NCBI GenBank assembly: GCA_900539225.1 | Contig: UQBO01000001.1 | Span: forward strand, 169,771 to 233,770 | DNA from: an uncultured Eubacteriales bacterium | GTDB taxonomy: Bacteria > Bacillota > Clostridia > Tissierellales > Peptoniphilaceae | Reading direction: 5' to 3' | DNA length: 64,000 bases | Part shown: positions 14,370 through 42,270 of the stretch, one piece after another | How the letters are laid out: each line of letters begins with the position of its first letter | Numbering within the stretch: the stretch's first letter is position 1 | Position numbers and translations under genes: made by a program | The notes under the pieces: model-generated | What the model was told of the DNA's origin: nothing | Database searches by the model: none | The model's input: the letters and a program-made list of their open reading frames with translations, nothing else

Positions 14370-14891
14370 ATGGATGGATTATTTGTATTAGCGTTTTTAT
14401 TTATGCTAATATCATCTATCGTCACTATTGTAAATGAGGCTAATAAGAAGAAAAAGCAAAGAGATACTTTAGATAAAAAGCTTGATGAAATTTACACTAG
14501 AACGATGAAAGATGCTAATAAAGCAAATGATAGAGAAAATAAAAAACGTGAAAAGGTTAAAAAGATAGGCAATTTAGAAAAGCATTATGACGAAGCAATC
14601 AGGGATGATTACAAAGAAAGAGCCGATGACTACTTTTCTGAAAAGAGTAAAAAGCTTGATGAATACCTTTCTAGAGATGTTAAAGATAGGCTTCGTAATT
14701 ATAAAGCAGAAAAAGAAGAAAAGCTTAGAGAAGAAAATAATGAAATAATTGCAGCTCAAAATAACGCGTATAATGAAATTGAGTCTGAAGAGATCGATGG
14801 TATTATTTTTACGAAGGAAAATTTAGCTAAATCTATAGTAATAAAAGAAATTTTAGACAAACCACTTGCCTTAAGGAGGATTAATGAGTAG
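14370..14891 (+). CDS. Small membrane-anchored K/E-rich coiled-coil protein (YqfB-position hypothetical)
   Basis: N-terminal TM helix, then highly charged low-complexity sequence. It occupies the position after floA, as yqfB does in B. subtilis. Confidence 0.45.
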   Translation: MDGLFVLAFLFMLISSIVTIVNEANKKKKQRDTLDKKLDEIYTRTMKDANKANDRENKKREKVKKIGNLEKHYDEAIRDDYKERADDYFSEKSKKLDEYLSRDVKDRLRNYKAEKEEKLREENNEIIAAQNNAYNEIESEEIDGIIFTKENLAKSIVIKEILDKPLALRRINE

Positions 14892-15888
14892 GGAACTTAA
14901 TTTTGACAGCAATAAGCAAGAAGCACTGGCTGGTAATTTAGATACAAATATCAAAATAATTGAAAAAGAACTAGACGTGAAGCTTGATATCAAATCGGAT
15001 AAGATTGTGATAGCTTCAGGCGATGAAGAGAAAGAGGCTATGGCTGAGAGACTTATAAAAGCCTTGTCAAGCCTTATCGACACACAAAAATCACTTAGTA
15101 AAGAGGACATATACTACTCCATCAATCTAGTGAAAAAGTCTAAGGAAAATCAATTATATGATATACAGAAGGACGTAGTTGCAATTACTAGCGAGGGCAA
15201 AACCATCAGACCAAAGACTATTGGCCAAAAAAGATATGTAGATATGATTAGAAAGTCAGGAATTACTTTTGGTATAGGACCTGCAGGTACTGGAAAGACT
15301 TATCTTGCCATTGCCATGGCGGTTAATGCTTTCAAAAATAAAGAAGTATCTAAGATTATATTGACTAGACCAGCTGTAGAAGCAGGCGAAAACCTTGGCT
15401 TCTTGCCGGGTGACCTAAAGGAAAAGGTAGACCCATATCTAAGGCCAGTTTATGACGCCTTATATGAAATTATGGGCAAGGAGCAATATGAGAAGAACGC
15501 CGAGAGAGGACTTATCGAGGTTGCCCCACTTGCTTACATGAGAGGAAGAACTTTGGACAAGGCTTTCATAATTCTTGATGAAGCGCAAAACACTACTGAA
15601 GAGCAAATGAAGATGTTCTTGACTAGGATGGGATTTAATTCTAAGGTCATAGTTACTGGAGACATTACTCAAAGGGACTTGCCTAAGGGAAAGAAGTCAG
15701 GTCTGATAGCTGCTAGCCATATCTTAAGAAATATAAATGGAATTAGCTTTATCGAACTTACTCAAACTGACGTTGTTAGAAATATACTTGTACAAAGAAT
15801 TATCGAAGCATATAATGCATATGAGAGCAAAAAGCTTGATAAAGAAAGTAAAGAGAGAGAAGAAAAAGATGGACATAGTGATAAATAA
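14884..15888 (+). CDS. phoH: PhoH-like ATPase
   Basis: Walker A GPAGTGKTYLAIAMAV and the PhoH C-terminal motifs. Confidence 0.85.
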   Translation: MSRELNFDSNKQEALAGNLDTNIKIIEKELDVKLDIKSDKIVIASGDEEKEAMAERLIKALSSLIDTQKSLSKEDIYYSINLVKKSKENQLYDIQKDVVAITSEGKTIRPKTIGQKRYVDMIRKSGITFGIGPAGTGKTYLAIAMAVNAFKNKEVSKIILTRPAVEAGENLGFLPGDLKEKVDPYLRPVYDALYEIMGKEQYEKNAERGLIEVAPLAYMRGRTLDKAFIILDEAQNTTEEQMKMFLTRMGFNSKVIVTGDITQRDLPKGKKSGLIAASHILRNINGISFIELTQTDVVRNILVQRIIEAYNAYESKKLDKESKEREEKDGHSDK

Positions 15889-16312
15889 CGAAAATAATTA
15901 TCCGATAGAGGCTTCTTACGAAGATACTATGAAGAGGATCGTTTCACTTGCTTTAAAGATGGAAGGTCTTGAAGATCACTACGAGGTAGGTCTTACTTAT
16001 GTATCGAAGGACGAGATAAAGGATTTAAATAGAGAGTACAGAGACATTGATAAAGTGACTGACGTTTTATCTTTTCCTCTTATAGAAGATTTTTCATCTG
16101 ATGAGACTCTCTTAGGTGATGTAGTTATCTCATACGAAGTAGCCGAGGAGCAAGCGAAGGAATATGGACACAGCCTTGAAAGAGAAATCATGTTTCTCTT
16201 CACTCATAGCATACTGCACTTACTTGGCTACGACCACATCGAGGAAGAAGACAGAGTCATTATGGAAGAAAGACAAAGAGAAATACTTGATGAGCTTAAA
16301 ATCACGCGTTAA
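15869..16312 (+). CDS. ybeY: Endoribonuclease YbeY (rRNA maturation factor)
   Basis: HSILHLLGYDH zinc-binding motif. The start was set to the internal ATG (MDIVINNEN...) that overlaps the phoH 3' end. Confidence 0.85.
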   Translation: MDIVINNENNYPIEASYEDTMKRIVSLALKMEGLEDHYEVGLTYVSKDEIKDLNREYRDIDKVTDVLSFPLIEDFSSDETLLGDVVISYEVAEEQAKEYGHSLEREIMFLFTHSILHLLGYDHIEEEDRVIMEERQREILDELKITR

Positions 16313-22147: not shown

Positions 22148-23162
22148 TTTTAGAGAAAATTATGAAGCATTTCAAAATTCCTACCTGTCAGAATACGCTT
22201 GCAGATGCTCAGATACAAAGGGAAGAAAGATTGAAGAAGAAAAGTGTACTATAAGAACTGACTTTCAAAGAGATAGAGACAGAATACTTCACTCAAAAGC
22301 GTTTAGGAGGCTTAAACATAAGACACAAGTCTTCTTAGCACCACAAGGTGACCACTTTAGAACTAGACTTACTCATACCTTAGAAGTTAGCCAGATAGCT
22401 AGAACTATAGCCAGAGCCTTAAGACTAAATGAAGATTTGGTTGAGGCCATATCCTTAGGTCACGACTTAGGACACACACCATTTGGTCACGCTGGTGAGA
22501 GCGCATTAAATGAAAAATGTAAGGACTTTGGCGGATTCAAGCACTATAAACAAAGTTTAAGAGTTGTTGATGTACTTGAAAAGAGAAATGGTCGCTTCGG
22601 TCTAAATCTTTGTGAAGAGGTTAGAGATGGTATACTTAATCATAGCGGACAAAATGAAGCCTTTACTCTTGAAGGAAAGTTAGTAAAGTTCGCAGATAGG
22701 ATTGCTTATATCAATCATGATATAGACGATGCCATCAGAGCGGGTATATTATCAGAAAAGGATATACCAAAAGATTTGATAGAAATATTAGGGGATTCTC
22801 ACTCAAAGAGAATAAATACCTTAATCACAGACATATTAAATGAAAGCTACGGACAAAATTATATAGCCATGTCGAAGGAGATTGGCGAAGCAATGGAGGC
22901 TTTAAGAGCATTCATGTTTAAGGAAGTTTACTTTAATCCAATAACAACCAAAGAACATGATAAGGCGAAAAACATAATATCAATGCTATATGATTATTAT
23001 GTAGAGCATCCTGAAAAATTACCTGAGAATATTAAAGAGATAGATGCAAGTCTTAATCAACAAATATGTGACTACATCGCGGGTATGTCTGATATATATG
23101 CAATAAACGAATTTAACAAGATATATGTACCACAAACGTGGAAAAATGAGGTTATACTATGA
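22140..23162 (+). CDS. dgt: dGTP triphosphohydrolase-like HD-domain protein
   Basis: FQRDRDRILHSKAFRRLKHKTQV...HFRTRLTHTLEVSQIART...GHDLGHTPFGHAGE HD motifs. Confidence 0.85.
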   Translation: MTNFRENYEAFQNSYLSEYACRCSDTKGRKIEEEKCTIRTDFQRDRDRILHSKAFRRLKHKTQVFLAPQGDHFRTRLTHTLEVSQIARTIARALRLNEDLVEAISLGHDLGHTPFGHAGESALNEKCKDFGGFKHYKQSLRVVDVLEKRNGRFGLNLCEEVRDGILNHSGQNEAFTLEGKLVKFADRIAYINHDIDDAIRAGILSEKDIPKDLIEILGDSHSKRINTLITDILNESYGQNYIAMSKEIGEAMEALRAFMFKEVYFNPITTKEHDKAKNIISMLYDYYVEHPEKLPENIKEIDASLNQQICDYIAGMSDIYAINEFNKIYVPQTWKNEVIL

Positions 23163-24885
23163 AAGTAATTAATGCAGCAGTCATTGATAAAATTAAAGAA
23201 TTTAATAATATTGAAGATGTGATTGGAGAAAATATTAAGCTTGAGAAAAAAGGCACATCTTATACTGGTCTGTGCCCATTTCATAAAGAAAAGACTCCAT
23301 CCTTCCACGTTAATAGCAAGGACGGTTACTACAAGTGCTTTGGCTGCGGCGAAGCAGGCGACGTTATTACTTTTATAGAAAAGTATAAAAACTACTCTTT
23401 CCAAGAAGCAGTTGAGTACCTTGCAGATAGAGCAAATATAACGCTTCAAGAAGCAACAGCTAAAAAAAAACTGAAAATGATCTCATAGAGAAATTTTATG
23501 ATATCAATAAAACAGCTCTTGACTTCTTCCAAAATCAAATACTAAAGTCAAAAATTGCTATTGATTATTTGATGAAGAGGAAGCTAAATAAAGACACTGT
23601 ATTAAAATATCAATTAGGCTATGCACCAAACGAGTGGACAGCGCTTAAAGACTATTTACTAGGCAAAGGATATAATGAAGACTTTATTATAAGAGCAGGA
23701 CTTGCGAAGAGAAAAGAAGGAAAAGACAGTTCATATGACACTTTTAGAAACAGGTTAGTCTTTCCTATAGTGGACTCACGTAACCATGTTCTTGGTTTTA
23801 GCGCTAGAAGCTTGGATAATAGTATGCCTAAGTACTTAAACACTAGCGAAAATATAGTTTTTAAGAAGAGAGAATTATTATTTGGCTACAATATATATAA
23901 AAAAGAAGCTGATAGAGATAAAATACTATTGGTAGAAGGAAACATTGATGTAATGAGTCTTTATCAAGCGGGAGTTAATTACGCTGTTGCCAATCTTGGA
24001 ACTGCCTTTACCATAAACCAAGCTAATCTACTTAAAAGAAATGCTAAGAAGATTTATATCTGCTACGATGGTGACAAGGCAGGTAAAAACGCAACACACA
24101 AGGCGATTGAGATACTTAGGTCAATAGACGCTAAGGCAAATGTAGTTGAACTACCAGAGGGCCTTGATCCAGATGATTATATTAAGAAGTATGGTCTTGC
24201 TGGTTTTACGGCAAAGATAAATGAAGCAAAAAATTCTGTAGAGTACGAAGTTTCAGAGCTTATGGAGCTTTATGACATTAACGATCCTGAAAGCCTTCTT
24301 CAGCTTATCAATGAACTATCAGATTTATTATCAAAGATAAACGATAAGATTGAAAGAGAGATTTACATAGACTATATTTCCAGGGTCTACTCTATAGACA
24401 AGAGACTATTAACAAATCAAGTTTCAAAAACAAAGTACGTTAACAATTATAAAGAAAAATACACTGTACCAGAGGTACCAAGAATTAAAAAGTTAGATAT
24501 AGAAATTATCGATGAGAATCTTTTAATATATGCTCTTGCAGATATTAAATATTTTAAATATATTAATAAGGAAATTTCTATAGATAATTACAGTAAAGTG
24601 TTTAAACTTAATATGCCACTACTTAAGTCCAAATACGAGGGAAATGGCGAGATAGAGCTTGATGACTTTGATTTAGCTGATAAAGAAAATGCGCTTTTAG
24701 AGATTGATAGTATTAGAAAGAAATCGGAAGAATCTACTTACATGAATCTCGAAGAATTATTAGAAAAAAGAGAGAAGCTAAAATCAAAGGATTACGTAAG
24801 CGATTTATTGAGCCAGATTAATGATGGCAAAAGTGATGCGATGGAGCTTTTAAAATTAATTAAAAAGCAAAAAGATAATGAATGA
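23159..24885 (+). pseudogene. dnaG: DNA primase DnaG, interrupted by a frameshift at an A9 homopolymer (about 23462-23470). The N-terminal Zn-finger part (23159-23488) and the TOPRIM/C-terminal part (in frame from about 23472, ORF-track 23569-24885) are in different frames.
   Basis: Fragment 1 carries CPFHKEKTPSFHVNSKDGYYKCFGCGEAGDVITF. Translating across the A-run in the other frame gives ...AKKKTENDLIEKFYDINKTALDFFQNQILKSKIAIDYLMKRKLNKDTVLKYQLGYAPNEW..., which is continuous DnaG sequence. One extra A (A10) restores a single ORF of about 575 aa. Confidence 0.8.
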
Positions 24886-26156
24886 TGAAGGGAAGTGTTC
24901 TTATGAAGAAAGAAAAGAATGCTAAGACGAATAATATTCAAGAAGAAAATTTAAGTGAAGAGGCAATAAAGATAATAGAAGAAGAAGTCAGTGAAGAAAA
25001 AAGACAAGCTATGTATAATCTAATTGATGCTAGCAGACAAAAGGGGATTATCGAATATAGAGATATTGAAGATGGCTTGGACAAATATGATCTTAGTGAA
25101 GACGAGATTCTATCTTTCTACGACGCTTTAGATGCTGTGCAAATTACTATTGTCGACTCAAAAAACTCAGATGAAGAGGAGATAGATTTAGAAAAGGATC
25201 TTGATATTGTTTCTGATGATGAAGACGAAGATATTGATTTAGATGAATTAAGATCTTTTGAAGAAGAATTAAGCAAAGAAGATAAACTTGAAGCTATTAG
25301 AGAAAAAGGAAAAAACAAGGTTGTTATAACTGATGACCCTGTTAGAATGTATCTTAAAGAGATAGGACGTATACCACTATTAACTTATGAAGAAGAGGTA
25401 GAACTAGCTAAGAGGATTGAATCAGGAGATCAGCAAGCTAAGGATCAACTAGCTGAAGCAAACCTTAGACTAGTAGTAAGTATTGCCAAAAGATATGTGG
25501 GTAGAGGTATGCAATTTTTGGATTTAATCCAAGAGGGCAACATGGGCCTAATAAAGGCTGTTGACAAATTCGAGCATAAAAAAGGATTTAAGTTTAGTAC
25601 TTACGCTACATGGTGGATTAGACAAGCCATCACTAGAGCAATTGCAGACCAAGCAAGAACAATTAGAATACCAGTTCACATGGTAGAAACTATAAATAAA
25701 CTTGTTAGAGCACAAAGACAACTAGTCCAAGAACTAGGTAGAGACCCACTTCCAGAAGAAGTTGCAGAGCTTATGAACATGGATGTAGAAAAGGTAAGAG
25801 AAGTCCAAAAGATAGCTCAAGAGCCAGTCTCACTTGAAACACCTATAGGCGAAGAAGAAGATTCGCACTTAGGTGACTTCATTCCAGATGAAGAAATACT
25901 TTCACCATCTGATGCAGCTACAAACACTATGCTTAGAGAGCAATTGATTTCAGTTTTAGATACACTTACAGATAGAGAAAGAAAAGTTCTAGCCTTAAGA
26001 TTTGGCCTTGACGATGGCAGGACAAGAACGCTTGAAGAAGTTGGACAAGCCTTTGACGTTACAAGAGAAAGAATAAGACAAATTGAGGCAAAGGCACTAA
26101 GAAAGCTTAAACATCCAAGCAGATCTAAAAAGCTTAGAGACTTCCTAGAACTATAA
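24882..26156 (+). CDS. sigA: RNA polymerase primary sigma factor SigA/RpoD (the start may be the ATG at 24903)
   Basis: Region 2 [18 protein letters not shown]..., [26 protein letters not shown], region 4 [20 protein letters not shown]. Confidence 0.93.
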
Positions 26157-30153: not shown

Positions 30154-31389
30154 ATGAAAAAAGTAGAATTACTAGCACCAGCAGGAGACTTAGAAAAGTT
30201 TAAAACTGCGATACAATATGGAGCTGATGCTGTTTACTTAGCTGGAGACAAGCTAGGTTTAAGAACTGCTTCTAAAAATTTTAGCCTAGATAATATAAAG
30301 GAAGCAACAAAGCTTGCTCATGATTTAGATAAAAAAGTTTATTTAACACTTAATGTTATTTCACACAACAAGGATCTAGAAGGTGTTGATGAGTATATAC
30401 AAAGCTTAGATGAAGCAGGTGTAGACGCATTTATAGTCTCAGACCCGGGTATATTTCAAAAGGTAAAAACACTTGCGCCAAGTAAAGAGATTCATATAAG
30501 CACTCAAGCAAATATCACAAATACTGCTACAGTAGAATTTTGGAAGATTCTTGGGGCAGATAGAGTTATCTTAGCAAGAGAATTAAGCGTAAATGAAATA
30601 AAAGAGATAAAAGATGAAGTGAAAGACAGTATAATGATTGAGACCTTTGTTCATGGAGCAATGTGCATGAGCTACTCAGGTAGATGCCTTTTATCAAACT
30701 ACATGACAGGCAGAAGCGCTAATATGGGCGACTGCGCACATCCATGTAGATACAAGTACTATCTTATGGAAGAGAAAAGACCTGGAGAGTACTTCCAAAT
30801 AACAGAGGATGAAAATGGTTCATACATCATGAACTCAAAAGACCTTTGCATGATTAACTACATTCCCGAGCTTATTGAAGCAGGAGTTGATTCATTCAAA
30901 ATTGAAGGAAGAGTAAAATCTGAATATTATGTAGCAACAGTCATTAACCAATATAGAAGAGCTATAGATGATTATTATGAAGATATTGAAAAATATAATT
31001 ACAATAGAGACAATAATATTTATCTAGAAGAGATAGAAAAAGTTAGTCATAGAGACTTTACTACAGCCTTTTTTTTTGGCGATGTGAAGGAAGCCTCATT
31101 AACTTATGATAATTCTTCATATATCAGACTATATGATTTCGTTGCGAAAGTTCTTGACTACGATGAAGACAAAAAGCTAATGAAGGTGCAAGAGAGAAAT
31201 AAATTCTCTATAGGCGACGAAGTAGAGATATTTGGACCAAAGTTTTATGACAAATTCACCATAAACGAGATCTACGATGAGGACATGAACGAGGTCGACA
31301 ATATAAATACACCTATGAAGGAAGCTTATCTAGCATATGATAAGAAGGTTGAATACAATTATATGATTAGAAGGAAGGTCAATGAATAG
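30154..31389 (+). CDS. Peptidase U32 family protein (TrhP/YrrO-like, tRNA U34 hydroxylation)
   Basis: MKKVELLAPAGDLEKFKTAIQYGADAVYLAG... and a 4-Cys cluster (CMSYSGRC...C..HPC), typical of U32. Confidence 0.8.
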   Translation: MKKVELLAPAGDLEKFKTAIQYGADAVYLAGDKLGLRTASKNFSLDNIKEATKLAHDLDKKVYLTLNVISHNKDLEGVDEYIQSLDEAGVDAFIVSDPGIFQKVKTLAPSKEIHISTQANITNTATVEFWKILGADRVILARELSVNEIKEIKDEVKDSIMIETFVHGAMCMSYSGRCLLSNYMTGRSANMGDCAHPCRYKYYLMEEKRPGEYFQITEDENGSYIMNSKDLCMINYIPELIEAGVDSFKIEGRVKSEYYVATVINQYRRAIDDYYEDIEKYNYNRDNNIYLEEIEKVSHRDFTTAFFFGDVKEASLTYDNSSYIRLYDFVAKVLDYDEDKKLMKVQERNKFSIGDEVEIFGPKFYDKFTINEIYDEDMNEVDNINTPMKEAYLAYDKKVEYNYMIRRKVNE

Positions 31390-41405: not shown

Positions 41406-42222
41406 TACATTCAAAGAGTCTTTTGACAAGAGGCTTCCTATGGAGCTAAGGCCTTATCTTAATGATGACGTCATCTCAGAGGCCATAGAATACGCCTCAT
41501 ACGATGCAGGCAAGAGACTTAGGCCCTTTATTCTATATAGCCTTGGAAATGAGCTAGAGCTCGATAAGAAGCTAATAAATGCCTTTGCGGTCGCACTTGA
41601 GTTAATTCACAATTATTCCCTAGTTCATGATGATTTGCCAGCTATGGACAACGATGAGTATAGACGCGGTAAATTTACAGTTCACAAGAAATATGGCGAA
41701 GCAAACGCAATTTTGTGCGGTGATGCACTTTTGAACCTGTCTATGGAATACCTAGCTCACAAGCTTAGAGATAATGATAATAAAAACATTTTAAAAGCAA
41801 TGAGCTATATGTATAGATCGTCAGGAGTAAAAGGCATGATACTTGGTCAGTCAGAAGACATACGCATGGAGAGTGGCGATATAGGCACATATACTTATGA
41901 TGAGTACAAGAGCATGATACTAAATAAGACAGGAAGACTATTTAATATAGCTTTTCTAGTTCCGTGCATATTAGCTGATAAAGATGAAGAGATAATGAAA
42001 AATGTTTTAATCTTCTCAATACTATTCGCAATGAGTTTTCAAATAAAGGACGATTTAGACGACTTGAATGAAAATAAAGAGATAGATGGCAACAATATAC
42101 TTAAGTTTCACTCATTTGAAGAGGCAAAAGAGATACTTGATGAAAACATAAATAAGATGAAGGCACTTCAAGCAAAGCTTAATTATGAAACAACAAAGTA
42201 CTCATTAGAATTAATTAAATAA
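41392..42222 (+). CDS. ispA: Polyprenyl (farnesyl/geranyl diphosphate) synthase
   Basis: First Asp-rich motif LVHDDLPAMDNDEYRRG and second FQIKDDLDD. Confidence 0.88.
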   Translation: MMNINTFKESFDKRLPMELRPYLNDDVISEAIEYASYDAGKRLRPFILYSLGNELELDKKLINAFAVALELIHNYSLVHDDLPAMDNDEYRRGKFTVHKKYGEANAILCGDALLNLSMEYLAHKLRDNDNKNILKAMSYMYRSSGVKGMILGQSEDIRMESGDIGTYTYDEYKSMILNKTGRLFNIAFLVPCILADKDEEIMKNVLIFSILFAMSFQIKDDLDDLNENKEIDGNNILKFHSFEEAKEILDENINKMKALQAKLNYETTKYSLELIK

Positions 42223-42233
42223 GATATATCAAA

Positions 42234-42270
42234 GACATATTGATTATTGAATCAGTATGTTTTTTTTTAT
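42234..42270 (+). terminator. Terminator hairpin followed by a T9 tract
   Basis: acatattgatt...aatcagtatgt, then ttttttttt. Confidence 0.5.

Follow-up and report, generated by a model that had tools for sequence, protein, structure and literature searches.

In a 64,000-nucleotide (nt) stretch of DNA from an uncultured Eubacteriales bacterium (GenBank assembly GCA_900539225.1, contig UQBO01000001.1, positions 169,771 to 233,770 of the forward strand; this whole stretch is called the window, and positions below are counted within it), the DNA primase gene dnaG is divided between two reading frames at a run of nine adenines (A9), and the same division recurs throughout the genus Fenollaria. Members of this genus are anaerobes of gut and skin, and dnaG is normally essential. 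Based on the sequence comparisons described below, we are highly confident that Fenollaria produces DnaG by recoding at the A9 tract. Normal decoding would give only a protein of 109 amino acids (aa) carrying the zinc-binding domain, while the full-length primase would need a -1 shift within the tract. RNA polymerase might slip on the nine A's and add one A, giving an AKKKT junction, or ribosomes might shift by -1 on the heptamer A_AAA_AAA, aided by a hairpin 7 nt downstream, giving the same AKKKT junction; these two routes are not mutually exclusive. A material contribution from polymerase slippage is likely, and one from ribosomal frameshifting is slightly favored. Probably both contribute, although sequence alone cannot apportion them. 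The parts of the locus are as follows.

23159 to 24885, forward strand: the whole dnaG (DNA primase) locus, whose 575-aa product needs a -1 shift within 23464-23485.
23148 to 23151, forward strand: a GAGG motif resembling a Shine-Dalgarno sequence, read from the sequence 7 nt 5' of the dnaG ATG; a putative ribosome-binding site.
23159 to 23488, forward strand: the zero-frame open reading frame (ORF) from the ATG at 23159 to a TAG, 109 aa, comprising the DnaG zinc-binding domain and the tail LKMIS; the product expected if no shift occurs.
23461 to 23463, forward strand: a TAA stop in the -1 frame, found by three-frame translation, which is the 5' limit of the interval for a productive shift and is absent in F. 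timonensis (GCT to GCA).
23486 to 23488, forward strand: the zero-frame TAG stop, the 3' limit of that interval, lying inside the 5' arm of the predicted hairpin.
23470 to 23568, forward strand: a start-less segment of 33 codons in the -1 frame (TENDLIEKFYDINKTALDFFQNQILKSKIAIDY), with no ATG, GTG, or TTG, conserved as protein.
23569 to 24885, forward strand: the remainder of dnaG, with the catalytic core, Toprim, and DnaB-binding domain; the part labeled 'DNA primase' by gene callers.

The only Pfam match of the 109-aa ORF was Zn_ribbon_DnaG, the CHC2 zinc ribbon (E = 5e-38). The -1 frame is open from just past the TAA at 23461-23463 to a stop at 24883-24885, and DNAG_N, Toprim, and DnaB_bind are encoded there. 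Insertion of a single A yielded an uninterrupted 575-aa DnaG with the junction ...QEATAKKKTENDLIEKFYDINKTALDFF..., also given as ...QEATAKKKTENDLIEKFYDINK..., and this repaired protein carried four domains in DnaG order (Zn_ribbon_DnaG, DNAG_N, Toprim, and DnaB_bind, with E values of 1e-37, 5e-35, 1e-24, and 6e-11, respectively). It was 40-52% identical to full-length DnaG proteins of Tissierellia relatives. The break falls exactly at the linker between the zinc-binding and catalytic domains. An initial annotation of this DNA had located the split at the A9 run (23462-23470), assigned the domains on either side to different frames, and proposed that one extra A restores DnaG, all of which was accurate to the base. 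dnaG was the only gene split by a homopolymer in the window (one split gene among approximately 66 ORFs), which has a G+C content of 33%. It overlaps both of its neighbors in the operon, its ATG overlapping the stop of an upstream HD-domain gene (ATGA) and its 3' end overlapping rpoD.

The shift was observed well beyond this contig. The exact 109-aa ORF was indexed in 739 blocks of the public collection, on approximately 370 contigs, and its 90% cluster held 96 distinct members. More than 30 loci with the split were read individually, covering every sampled Fenollaria species. Across 6.3 kb, ten long contigs produced by different projects and with different assemblers, together with the isolate genome of F. 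timonensis GD5, matched the window at 94-97.5% identity, and every one of them carried the shift. It was also present in all five GTDB representatives of Fenollaria species, including F. massiliensis (85% protein identity), in three deeper lineages (L030, 81%; L031, 78%; and F. sporofastidiosus, 89%), and in 11 of 11 further metagenome loci. Additionally, a 109-aa ORF of the same 90%-identity cluster was found in F. massiliensis (1.61-Mb contig), in 'Peptostreptococcaceae bacterium oral taxon 929' (1.65-Mb contig), and in 'Anaerosphaera sp. HMSC064C01'; the latter two records may themselves be Fenollaria. In all Fenollaria lineages, dnaG therefore departs from the single uninterrupted ORF typical of DnaG, the frame of the zinc ribbon differing from that of the rest. 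Because the same split occurs in every relative examined, it is far beyond chance. The nearest outgroup (P0023, 52% identity) had an intact 584-aa gene with no A run at the site. Since all lineages are split and this closest outgroup is intact, the one-base loss arose on the branch leading to Fenollaria (Tissierellia) and has been kept since.

These results bear on the first option offered by the initial annotation, a homopolymer error of sequencing or assembly that would conceal a true run of ten (A10). Errors are common in homopolymers, and A10 does appear in a few assemblies, but hundreds of independent assemblies from differing projects and assemblers agree on the out-of-frame state, together with several isolate genomes, including three 1.6-Mb contigs. 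The A10 of other strains was resolved in the same data sets, and in F. timonensis the preceding codon is GCA, which makes the run A10 while the gene is nonetheless out of frame. The number and diversity of the agreeing assemblies, isolate genomes among them, and the recurrence of the shift in hundreds of contigs and in synonymously saturated lineages refute the error option, to which we give a negligible probability.

Both parts of the gene are under selection as protein. Ratios of nonsynonymous to synonymous divergence (dN/dS) were calculated by the Nei-Gojobori method between the window and six lineages, for which synonymous divergence (dS) was saturated (above 1.5). dN/dS was 0.02-0.03 for the zinc-binding domain, 0.04-0.08 for the 33 start-less codons in the -1 frame (stops interrupt both other frames of this segment), and 0.04-0.08 for the rest of dnaG. 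The gene is functional, with strong purifying selection on both halves and on the start-less segment, and values of 0.02-0.08 at saturated dS rule out a pseudogene.

The downstream part lacks an evident start of its own. No canonical start occurs from the tract to 23569, and the first ones in the -1 frame, TTG at 23569 and ATG at 23572, have no Shine-Dalgarno motif before them and were not kept among lineages, the corresponding codons being CTA CTT in F. sporofastidiosus, TTG CTA in L030, and TTA TTG in L031. Since these codons are unconserved and no Shine-Dalgarno motif precedes them, an independently initiated downstream protein is unlikely, and we rejected an independent start. A scan for internal promoters returned 11 promoter-like sites compared with 9.2 in shuffled sequence and nothing notable at the junction. 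One promoter-like match (TTGACT, 18 nt, TAAAGT; 9 of 12 positions) was located at 23519-23548, within the start-less segment; as the scan was no richer than shuffled sequence, this match is probably due to chance.

The same evidence bears on a two-piece primase, in which the zinc-binding domain and the catalytic plus helicase-binding part would be separate proteins cooperating in trans, the second being made by re-initiation at a noncanonical codon near the TAG, for example, the ATA at 23485. The zinc-binding domain of DnaG-type primases can act in trans on an adjacent primase subunit, and this arrangement would suit both the position of the split, exactly in the interdomain linker, and the ATA or ATT starts that annotation pipelines put here. 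However, the second piece has neither a canonical start nor a Shine-Dalgarno motif, the nearest TTG/ATG being unconserved, and two separate pieces give no reason for a strict AAA AAA AAA where 48% of lysine codons are AAG. We consider a two-piece primase very unlikely.

Public annotation treats the locus as separate genes, a 'CHC2 zinc finger domain-containing protein' or 'hypothetical protein' followed by a 5'-truncated 'DNA primase'. The annotated 'DNA primase' starts are noncanonical, being ATA in F. timonensis (L007 3327-4727) and ATT in F. sporofastidiosus (L033 1501-2910).

The tract itself contains two overlapping elements.

23462 to 23470, forward strand: the A9 slippery tract, three zero-frame AAA lysine codons in the interdomain linker, in the context GCT AAAAAAAAA CTG.
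23464 to 23470, forward strand: the heptamer A_AAA_AAA, in the zero-frame register that, by frame arithmetic, is right for a tandem -1 ribosomal slip.

The A9 is the only A run of at least nine in the window. Across lineages the tract always had at least nine A's (A10 in F. timonensis), never seven or eight, and all three junction lysine codons were AAA in 10 of 10 haplotypes, from lineages that are synonymously saturated. By comparison, lysine codons in the 66 ORFs of the window were 52% AAA and 48% AAG, and the 20 other KKK tripeptides encoded there never used AAAAAAAAA. The codon 5' of the run varied freely (GCT, GTT, GGT, AGT, and GCA), and the linker is hypervariable in related genera. 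The freely varying preceding codon, the hypervariable linker, and the 48% AAG usage argue that the invariance of the A9 is not a protein constraint; the run itself is selectively maintained. Such a linker would tolerate one lysine more or fewer, so slippage products of differing length would still work. No tRNA-Lys genes were present in the window.

Other long runs in the window comprised one T15 and two T9. The T9 at 31069-31077, the only other run of at least nine inside a coding region, forms three in-frame TTT phenylalanine codons of a U32 peptidase gene (30154-31389) and leaves that gene undisrupted. The T15 (105-119) and the remaining T9 (42260-42268) are intergenic, located before the first ORF and past the ORF ending at 42222, respectively.

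The tract has the features of both kinds of recoding signal. It is an A run of about nine or more with conserved length, as is characteristic of transcriptional slippage sites, and it also contains the X_XXY_YYZ pattern of -1 frameshift signals in the form A_AAA_AAA, with zero-frame codons AAA AAA. Efficient slippage sets in at about the length of the RNA-DNA hybrid, which nine A's approximate. In support of slippage, the run always had at least nine A's, whereas ribosomal frameshifting needs only seven, and this constant minimum favors the polymerase route through a length requirement such as that of the hybrid. Runs of nine A or T are established sites of bacterial transcriptional slippage according to a 2016 recoding review (PMC5009743). 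In E. coli reporters, nine A's resulted in 40% shifting and seven A's in 10%, in an assay that did not separate the two mechanisms, as given in the GeneTack survey (PMC3711429). A_AAA_AAA belongs to a proven class of frameshift heptamers (PMC4066793 and PMC3711429).

Two further elements lie immediately 3' of the heptamer.

23471 to 23477, forward strand: the 7-nt spacer CTGAAAA, invariant save for a single A>T substitution in the F. sporofastidiosus lineage.
23478 to 23506, forward strand: a predicted stem-loop, UGAU-C-UCAUAGA[GAAAU]UUUAUGA-U-AUCA, with 11 pairs and one C/U mismatch; a candidate 3' stimulator of -1 frameshifting.

The heptamer, the 7-nt spacer, and the predicted stem-loop are arranged as is usual in -1 ribosomal frameshift signals. 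RNAalifold and single-sequence folds predicted the hairpin in every lineage, with stabilities from -7.6 kcal/mol, the value for the window, to -14 kcal/mol in L030, in which a U>G change turns the C/U mismatch into a pair; substitutions strengthened it in the two deepest lineages. No comparable structure was found in the outgroup. From the first A of the run to 23489, a stretch of 28 nt, all lineages had the same sequence but for one A>T change. Substitutions in the hairpin fell in the loop, at the mismatch, or among wobble-preserving transitions of the 3' arm, with one exception, a C>A at 23505 (L006 and L031) that breaks the second pair from the stem base (G18-C44 in alignment A2). Among codons with an invariant amino acid, synonymous variation was seen at 1 of 8 in the first 12 codons past the run versus 234 of 301 elsewhere in the gene (Fisher P = 2e-4), and this was the only such window among 302. 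Lowered synonymous variability 3' of the site is an accepted bioinformatic signature of a -1 frameshift signal (PMC4066793), and here it was found together with conservation of the site, part of it overlapping the zero-frame tail.

Several observations weigh against this reading of the site. Of the hairpin pairs, 8 of 12 were invariant, 3 changed one-sidedly with wobble kept, and none showed a compensatory change, which gives no covariation support; the case for the hairpin is therefore made by its position, its stability, and synonymous-site conservation. Its stability is modest: compared with other 36-nt windows of this AT-rich sequence, it ranks within the top 5% but is not extreme. The zero-frame tail LKMIS and its stop cover six of the frozen codons as well, and this dual coding could explain much of the synonymous freeze. 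By inspection of the alignment, we saw no upstream Shine-Dalgarno-like stimulator of the E. coli dnaX type, which is optional in this class, CAAGAAGCAACAGCT having no conserved GGAGG-like motif, and no conserved upstream nascent-RNA hairpin of the sort found at some slippage sites. An upstream hairpin, GCTTC-AA-GAAGC (23443-23454), was considered as a slippage stimulator and rejected, being unconserved in F. sporofastidiosus, L030, and L013. An Rfam scan of 23300-23700 returned nothing near the gathering score.

Each route can be asked to account for recoding by itself, as a narrower case of the same proposal. That polymerase slippage acts alone, adding one A to a message that is then decoded normally, with the hairpin irrelevant, is possible, although we do not think it probable. 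It would account for a tract that is always at least nine A's and never seven or eight, though the neighboring linker codon varies, and for a length close to that of the hybrid for efficient slippage, and it has precedents in Thermus dnaX and Blochmannia dnaG. The frozen synonymous sites and the hairpin at 7 nt are left unexplained by slippage, because RNA structure lying downstream has no means of affecting the polymerase until it has been transcribed, unless the overlapping zero-frame tail is the alternative cause of that conservation. Conversely, if ribosomes shifted by -1 on A_AAA_AAA under stimulation by the hairpin, with negligible polymerase slippage, this would fit the canonical heptamer, the 7-nt spacer, the stem-loop layout, and the lowered synonymous variability 3' of the site. 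However, bacterial RNA polymerases generally slip on A9, so that a share of A10 mRNA would arise in any case; the hairpin is weak and without covariation; and nine A's are conserved where seven would suffice. This makes frameshifting by the ribosome alone unlikely.

Transcriptional slippage was the second option of the initial annotation. Its core, recoding at the tract, is strongly supported by the selection on both halves, the start-less segment, and the A run, while the polymerase as the specific mechanism is not established by them. That annotation omitted -1 ribosomal frameshifting on A_AAA_AAA, which gives the same protein and is backed by the hairpin 7 nt downstream and the frozen synonymous sites. 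Nor did it foresee that the shift would be ancient and genus-wide or that in-frame A10 alleles would coexist at low frequency.

A minority of assemblies encoded a full-length DnaG of 575 or 598 aa (P0001-P0013, with 1-3 member sequences each), compared with 337, 69, and 31 members in the three largest clusters of the split form. All in-frame alleles that were read were A10, and they formed at least three independent shallow tips nested among A9 alleles, one beside L003, one beside the window, and one within the F. massiliensis lineage, at 1.2% divergence from its type strain. Shallow A10 tips nested in this way show that the tract mutates back and forth between A9 and A10. The in-frame state had neither spread nor become fixed in any sampled lineage, the A run was lost in none, and the out-of-frame allele made up well over 95% of assemblies and all isolate genomes. 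Regarding the F. sporofastidiosus lineage, its A9 state was independently confirmed in L046.

The length polymorphism raises the alternative of phase variation or decay, in which A9 (off) and A10 (on) would interconvert by replication slippage and either only A10 cells would make primase or the copy would be dispensable owing to another primase. A9/A10 polymorphism within at least three lineages is what phase variation would produce. In contrast, a dispensable off state with both states common was not what we observed: the 'off' allele predominates, being the consensus of all isolate genomes and of well over 95% of assemblies, which is impossible if that allele is lethal, and dnaG is not a contingency-type gene. 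Decay is excluded by the dN/dS of 0.02-0.08 at saturated dS. We regard phase variation or decay as extremely improbable.

Recoding at the tract would be expected to keep primase output from the dnaG-rpoD operon low and constant, with the free zinc-binding domain made in greater amount. A further, tentative idea, which we consider rather doubtful, is that the frameshift is not a tolerated lesion but a selected two-product device that supplies the 109-aa domain in excess along with a small fixed fraction of full-length enzyme. The free zinc-binding domain, with its tail LKMIS, would then act in trans on the primase or helicase and tune primer synthesis, in a manner likened to OrfA/OrfAB or tau/gamma (see below). 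This is suggested by A10 revertants that recur yet never spread or become fixed and by the nucleotide-level freezing of the zero-frame tail and the hairpin.

The 3' end of dnaG was polymorphic among strains (24800-24950 in the window; loci L002 and L005, 3414-4796), the downstream part having 437 or 460 aa. Full-length DnaG is accordingly 575 or 598 aa by strain, and the longer form overlaps rpoD by approximately 50 nt, with rpoD then called 7 codons shorter. The upstream HD-domain (dGTPase-like) gene was a single 340-aa ORF in the window and other loci, but in F. sporofastidiosus GCA_905332505.2 (L033 355-1187) it was called as pieces of 191 aa and 97 aa, reflecting either another frameshift or an indel error of that assembly. 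Elsewhere in the window, the mechanical ORF list gives a 152-nt overlap between the ORFs at 14884-15888 (PhoH-like) and 15737-16312 (YbeY). A second frameshift at 14884-16312 was rejected because the YbeY domain begins only at residue 58, which indicates an over-extended ybeY start beside phoH.

The nearest published counterpart is in Blochmannia vafer, where dnaG is among eight genes with a poly(A) frameshift; the case is species-specific and belongs to the degenerate genome of an insect endosymbiont (PMC3017870). As in Fenollaria, a single-base poly(A) indel cuts a dnaG that shows no other damage and whose evolutionary rate is normal; slippage was inferred to restore the frame (PMC3017870). 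The Blochmannia and Buchnera frameshifts are viewed as tolerated damage in reduced genomes, whereas Fenollaria is host-associated but free-growing, with a sole case in 64 kb, and its shift is genus-wide at saturated dS with a conserved, predicted downstream hairpin. The pattern of endosymbiont-type 'rescue', with many affected genes, a reduced AT-rich genome, and relaxed selection, was not found here, as one gene was split and purifying selection was strong. The 1.6-Mb contigs suggest a normal small Firmicute genome.

Among recoded genes, dnaX is similar in being a replication gene with an A-rich heptamer (A_AAA_AAG in E. coli, where recoding is by -1 ribosomal frameshifting) or an A9 run (Thermus thermophilus, where it is by transcriptional slippage), a stem-loop a few nucleotides downstream, and two products per gene. 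It differs in that the zero frame gives full-length tau and the shift gives truncated gamma, while in Fenollaria dnaG the zero frame is short and the shift would give the full length; the E. coli gene also has an upstream Shine-Dalgarno-like element, of which none is conserved at Fenollaria dnaG, and its hairpin is much stronger. Two-ORF dnaX genes with A10 appear in the GeneTack survey (PMC3711429). The OrfA/OrfAB system of the IS3 family of insertion sequences (IS), such as IS911 and IS150, resembles Fenollaria dnaG in its small DNA-binding zero-frame product, to which a -1 shift on an A-rich heptamer with 3' structure fuses the catalytic part. A_AAA_AAA with a stem-loop is proven in an IS case (PMC4066793). 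IS3 genes encode transposases of mobile elements and the regulatory role of OrfA has been shown, whereas Fenollaria dnaG is a core chromosomal gene. IS3-family OrfA/OrfAB is the closest system in logic and dnaX the closest in gene class. A -1 frameshift in E. coli copA yields the CopA(Z) metal-binding domain, so that one gene gives an N-terminal metal-binding domain and a full-length enzyme, but there the shift yields the short product. The isoforms of phage T7 gene 4 likewise differ by presence or absence of the primase zinc-binding domain, but they arise from an internal start and the short form is the one without that domain.

A literature search on recoding of dnaG or primase found only the Blochmannia vafer case, and the available portions of the 2016 recoding review (PMC5009743) and the GeneTack survey (PMC3711429) made no mention of primase or dnaG. 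A search on Fenollaria and frameshifting returned nothing relevant.

Fenollaria dnaG adds a case of known recoding rather than a new mechanism. To our knowledge, only a few core chromosomal genes of bacteria, among them prfB, dnaX, and copA, show conserved recoding, and an obligatory, genus-wide primase frameshift in a culturable human-associated anaerobe would, if true, join them. It would mean that poly(A) 'rescue' also occurs outside degenerate endosymbionts, and the annotated halves of dnaG should be merged as one recoded gene in public databases. Fenollaria dnaG would also serve as a system for separating polymerase slippage from ribosomal frameshifting on one and the same tract, and it prompts one to ask whether the zinc-binding domain of primase has a regulatory function when free.

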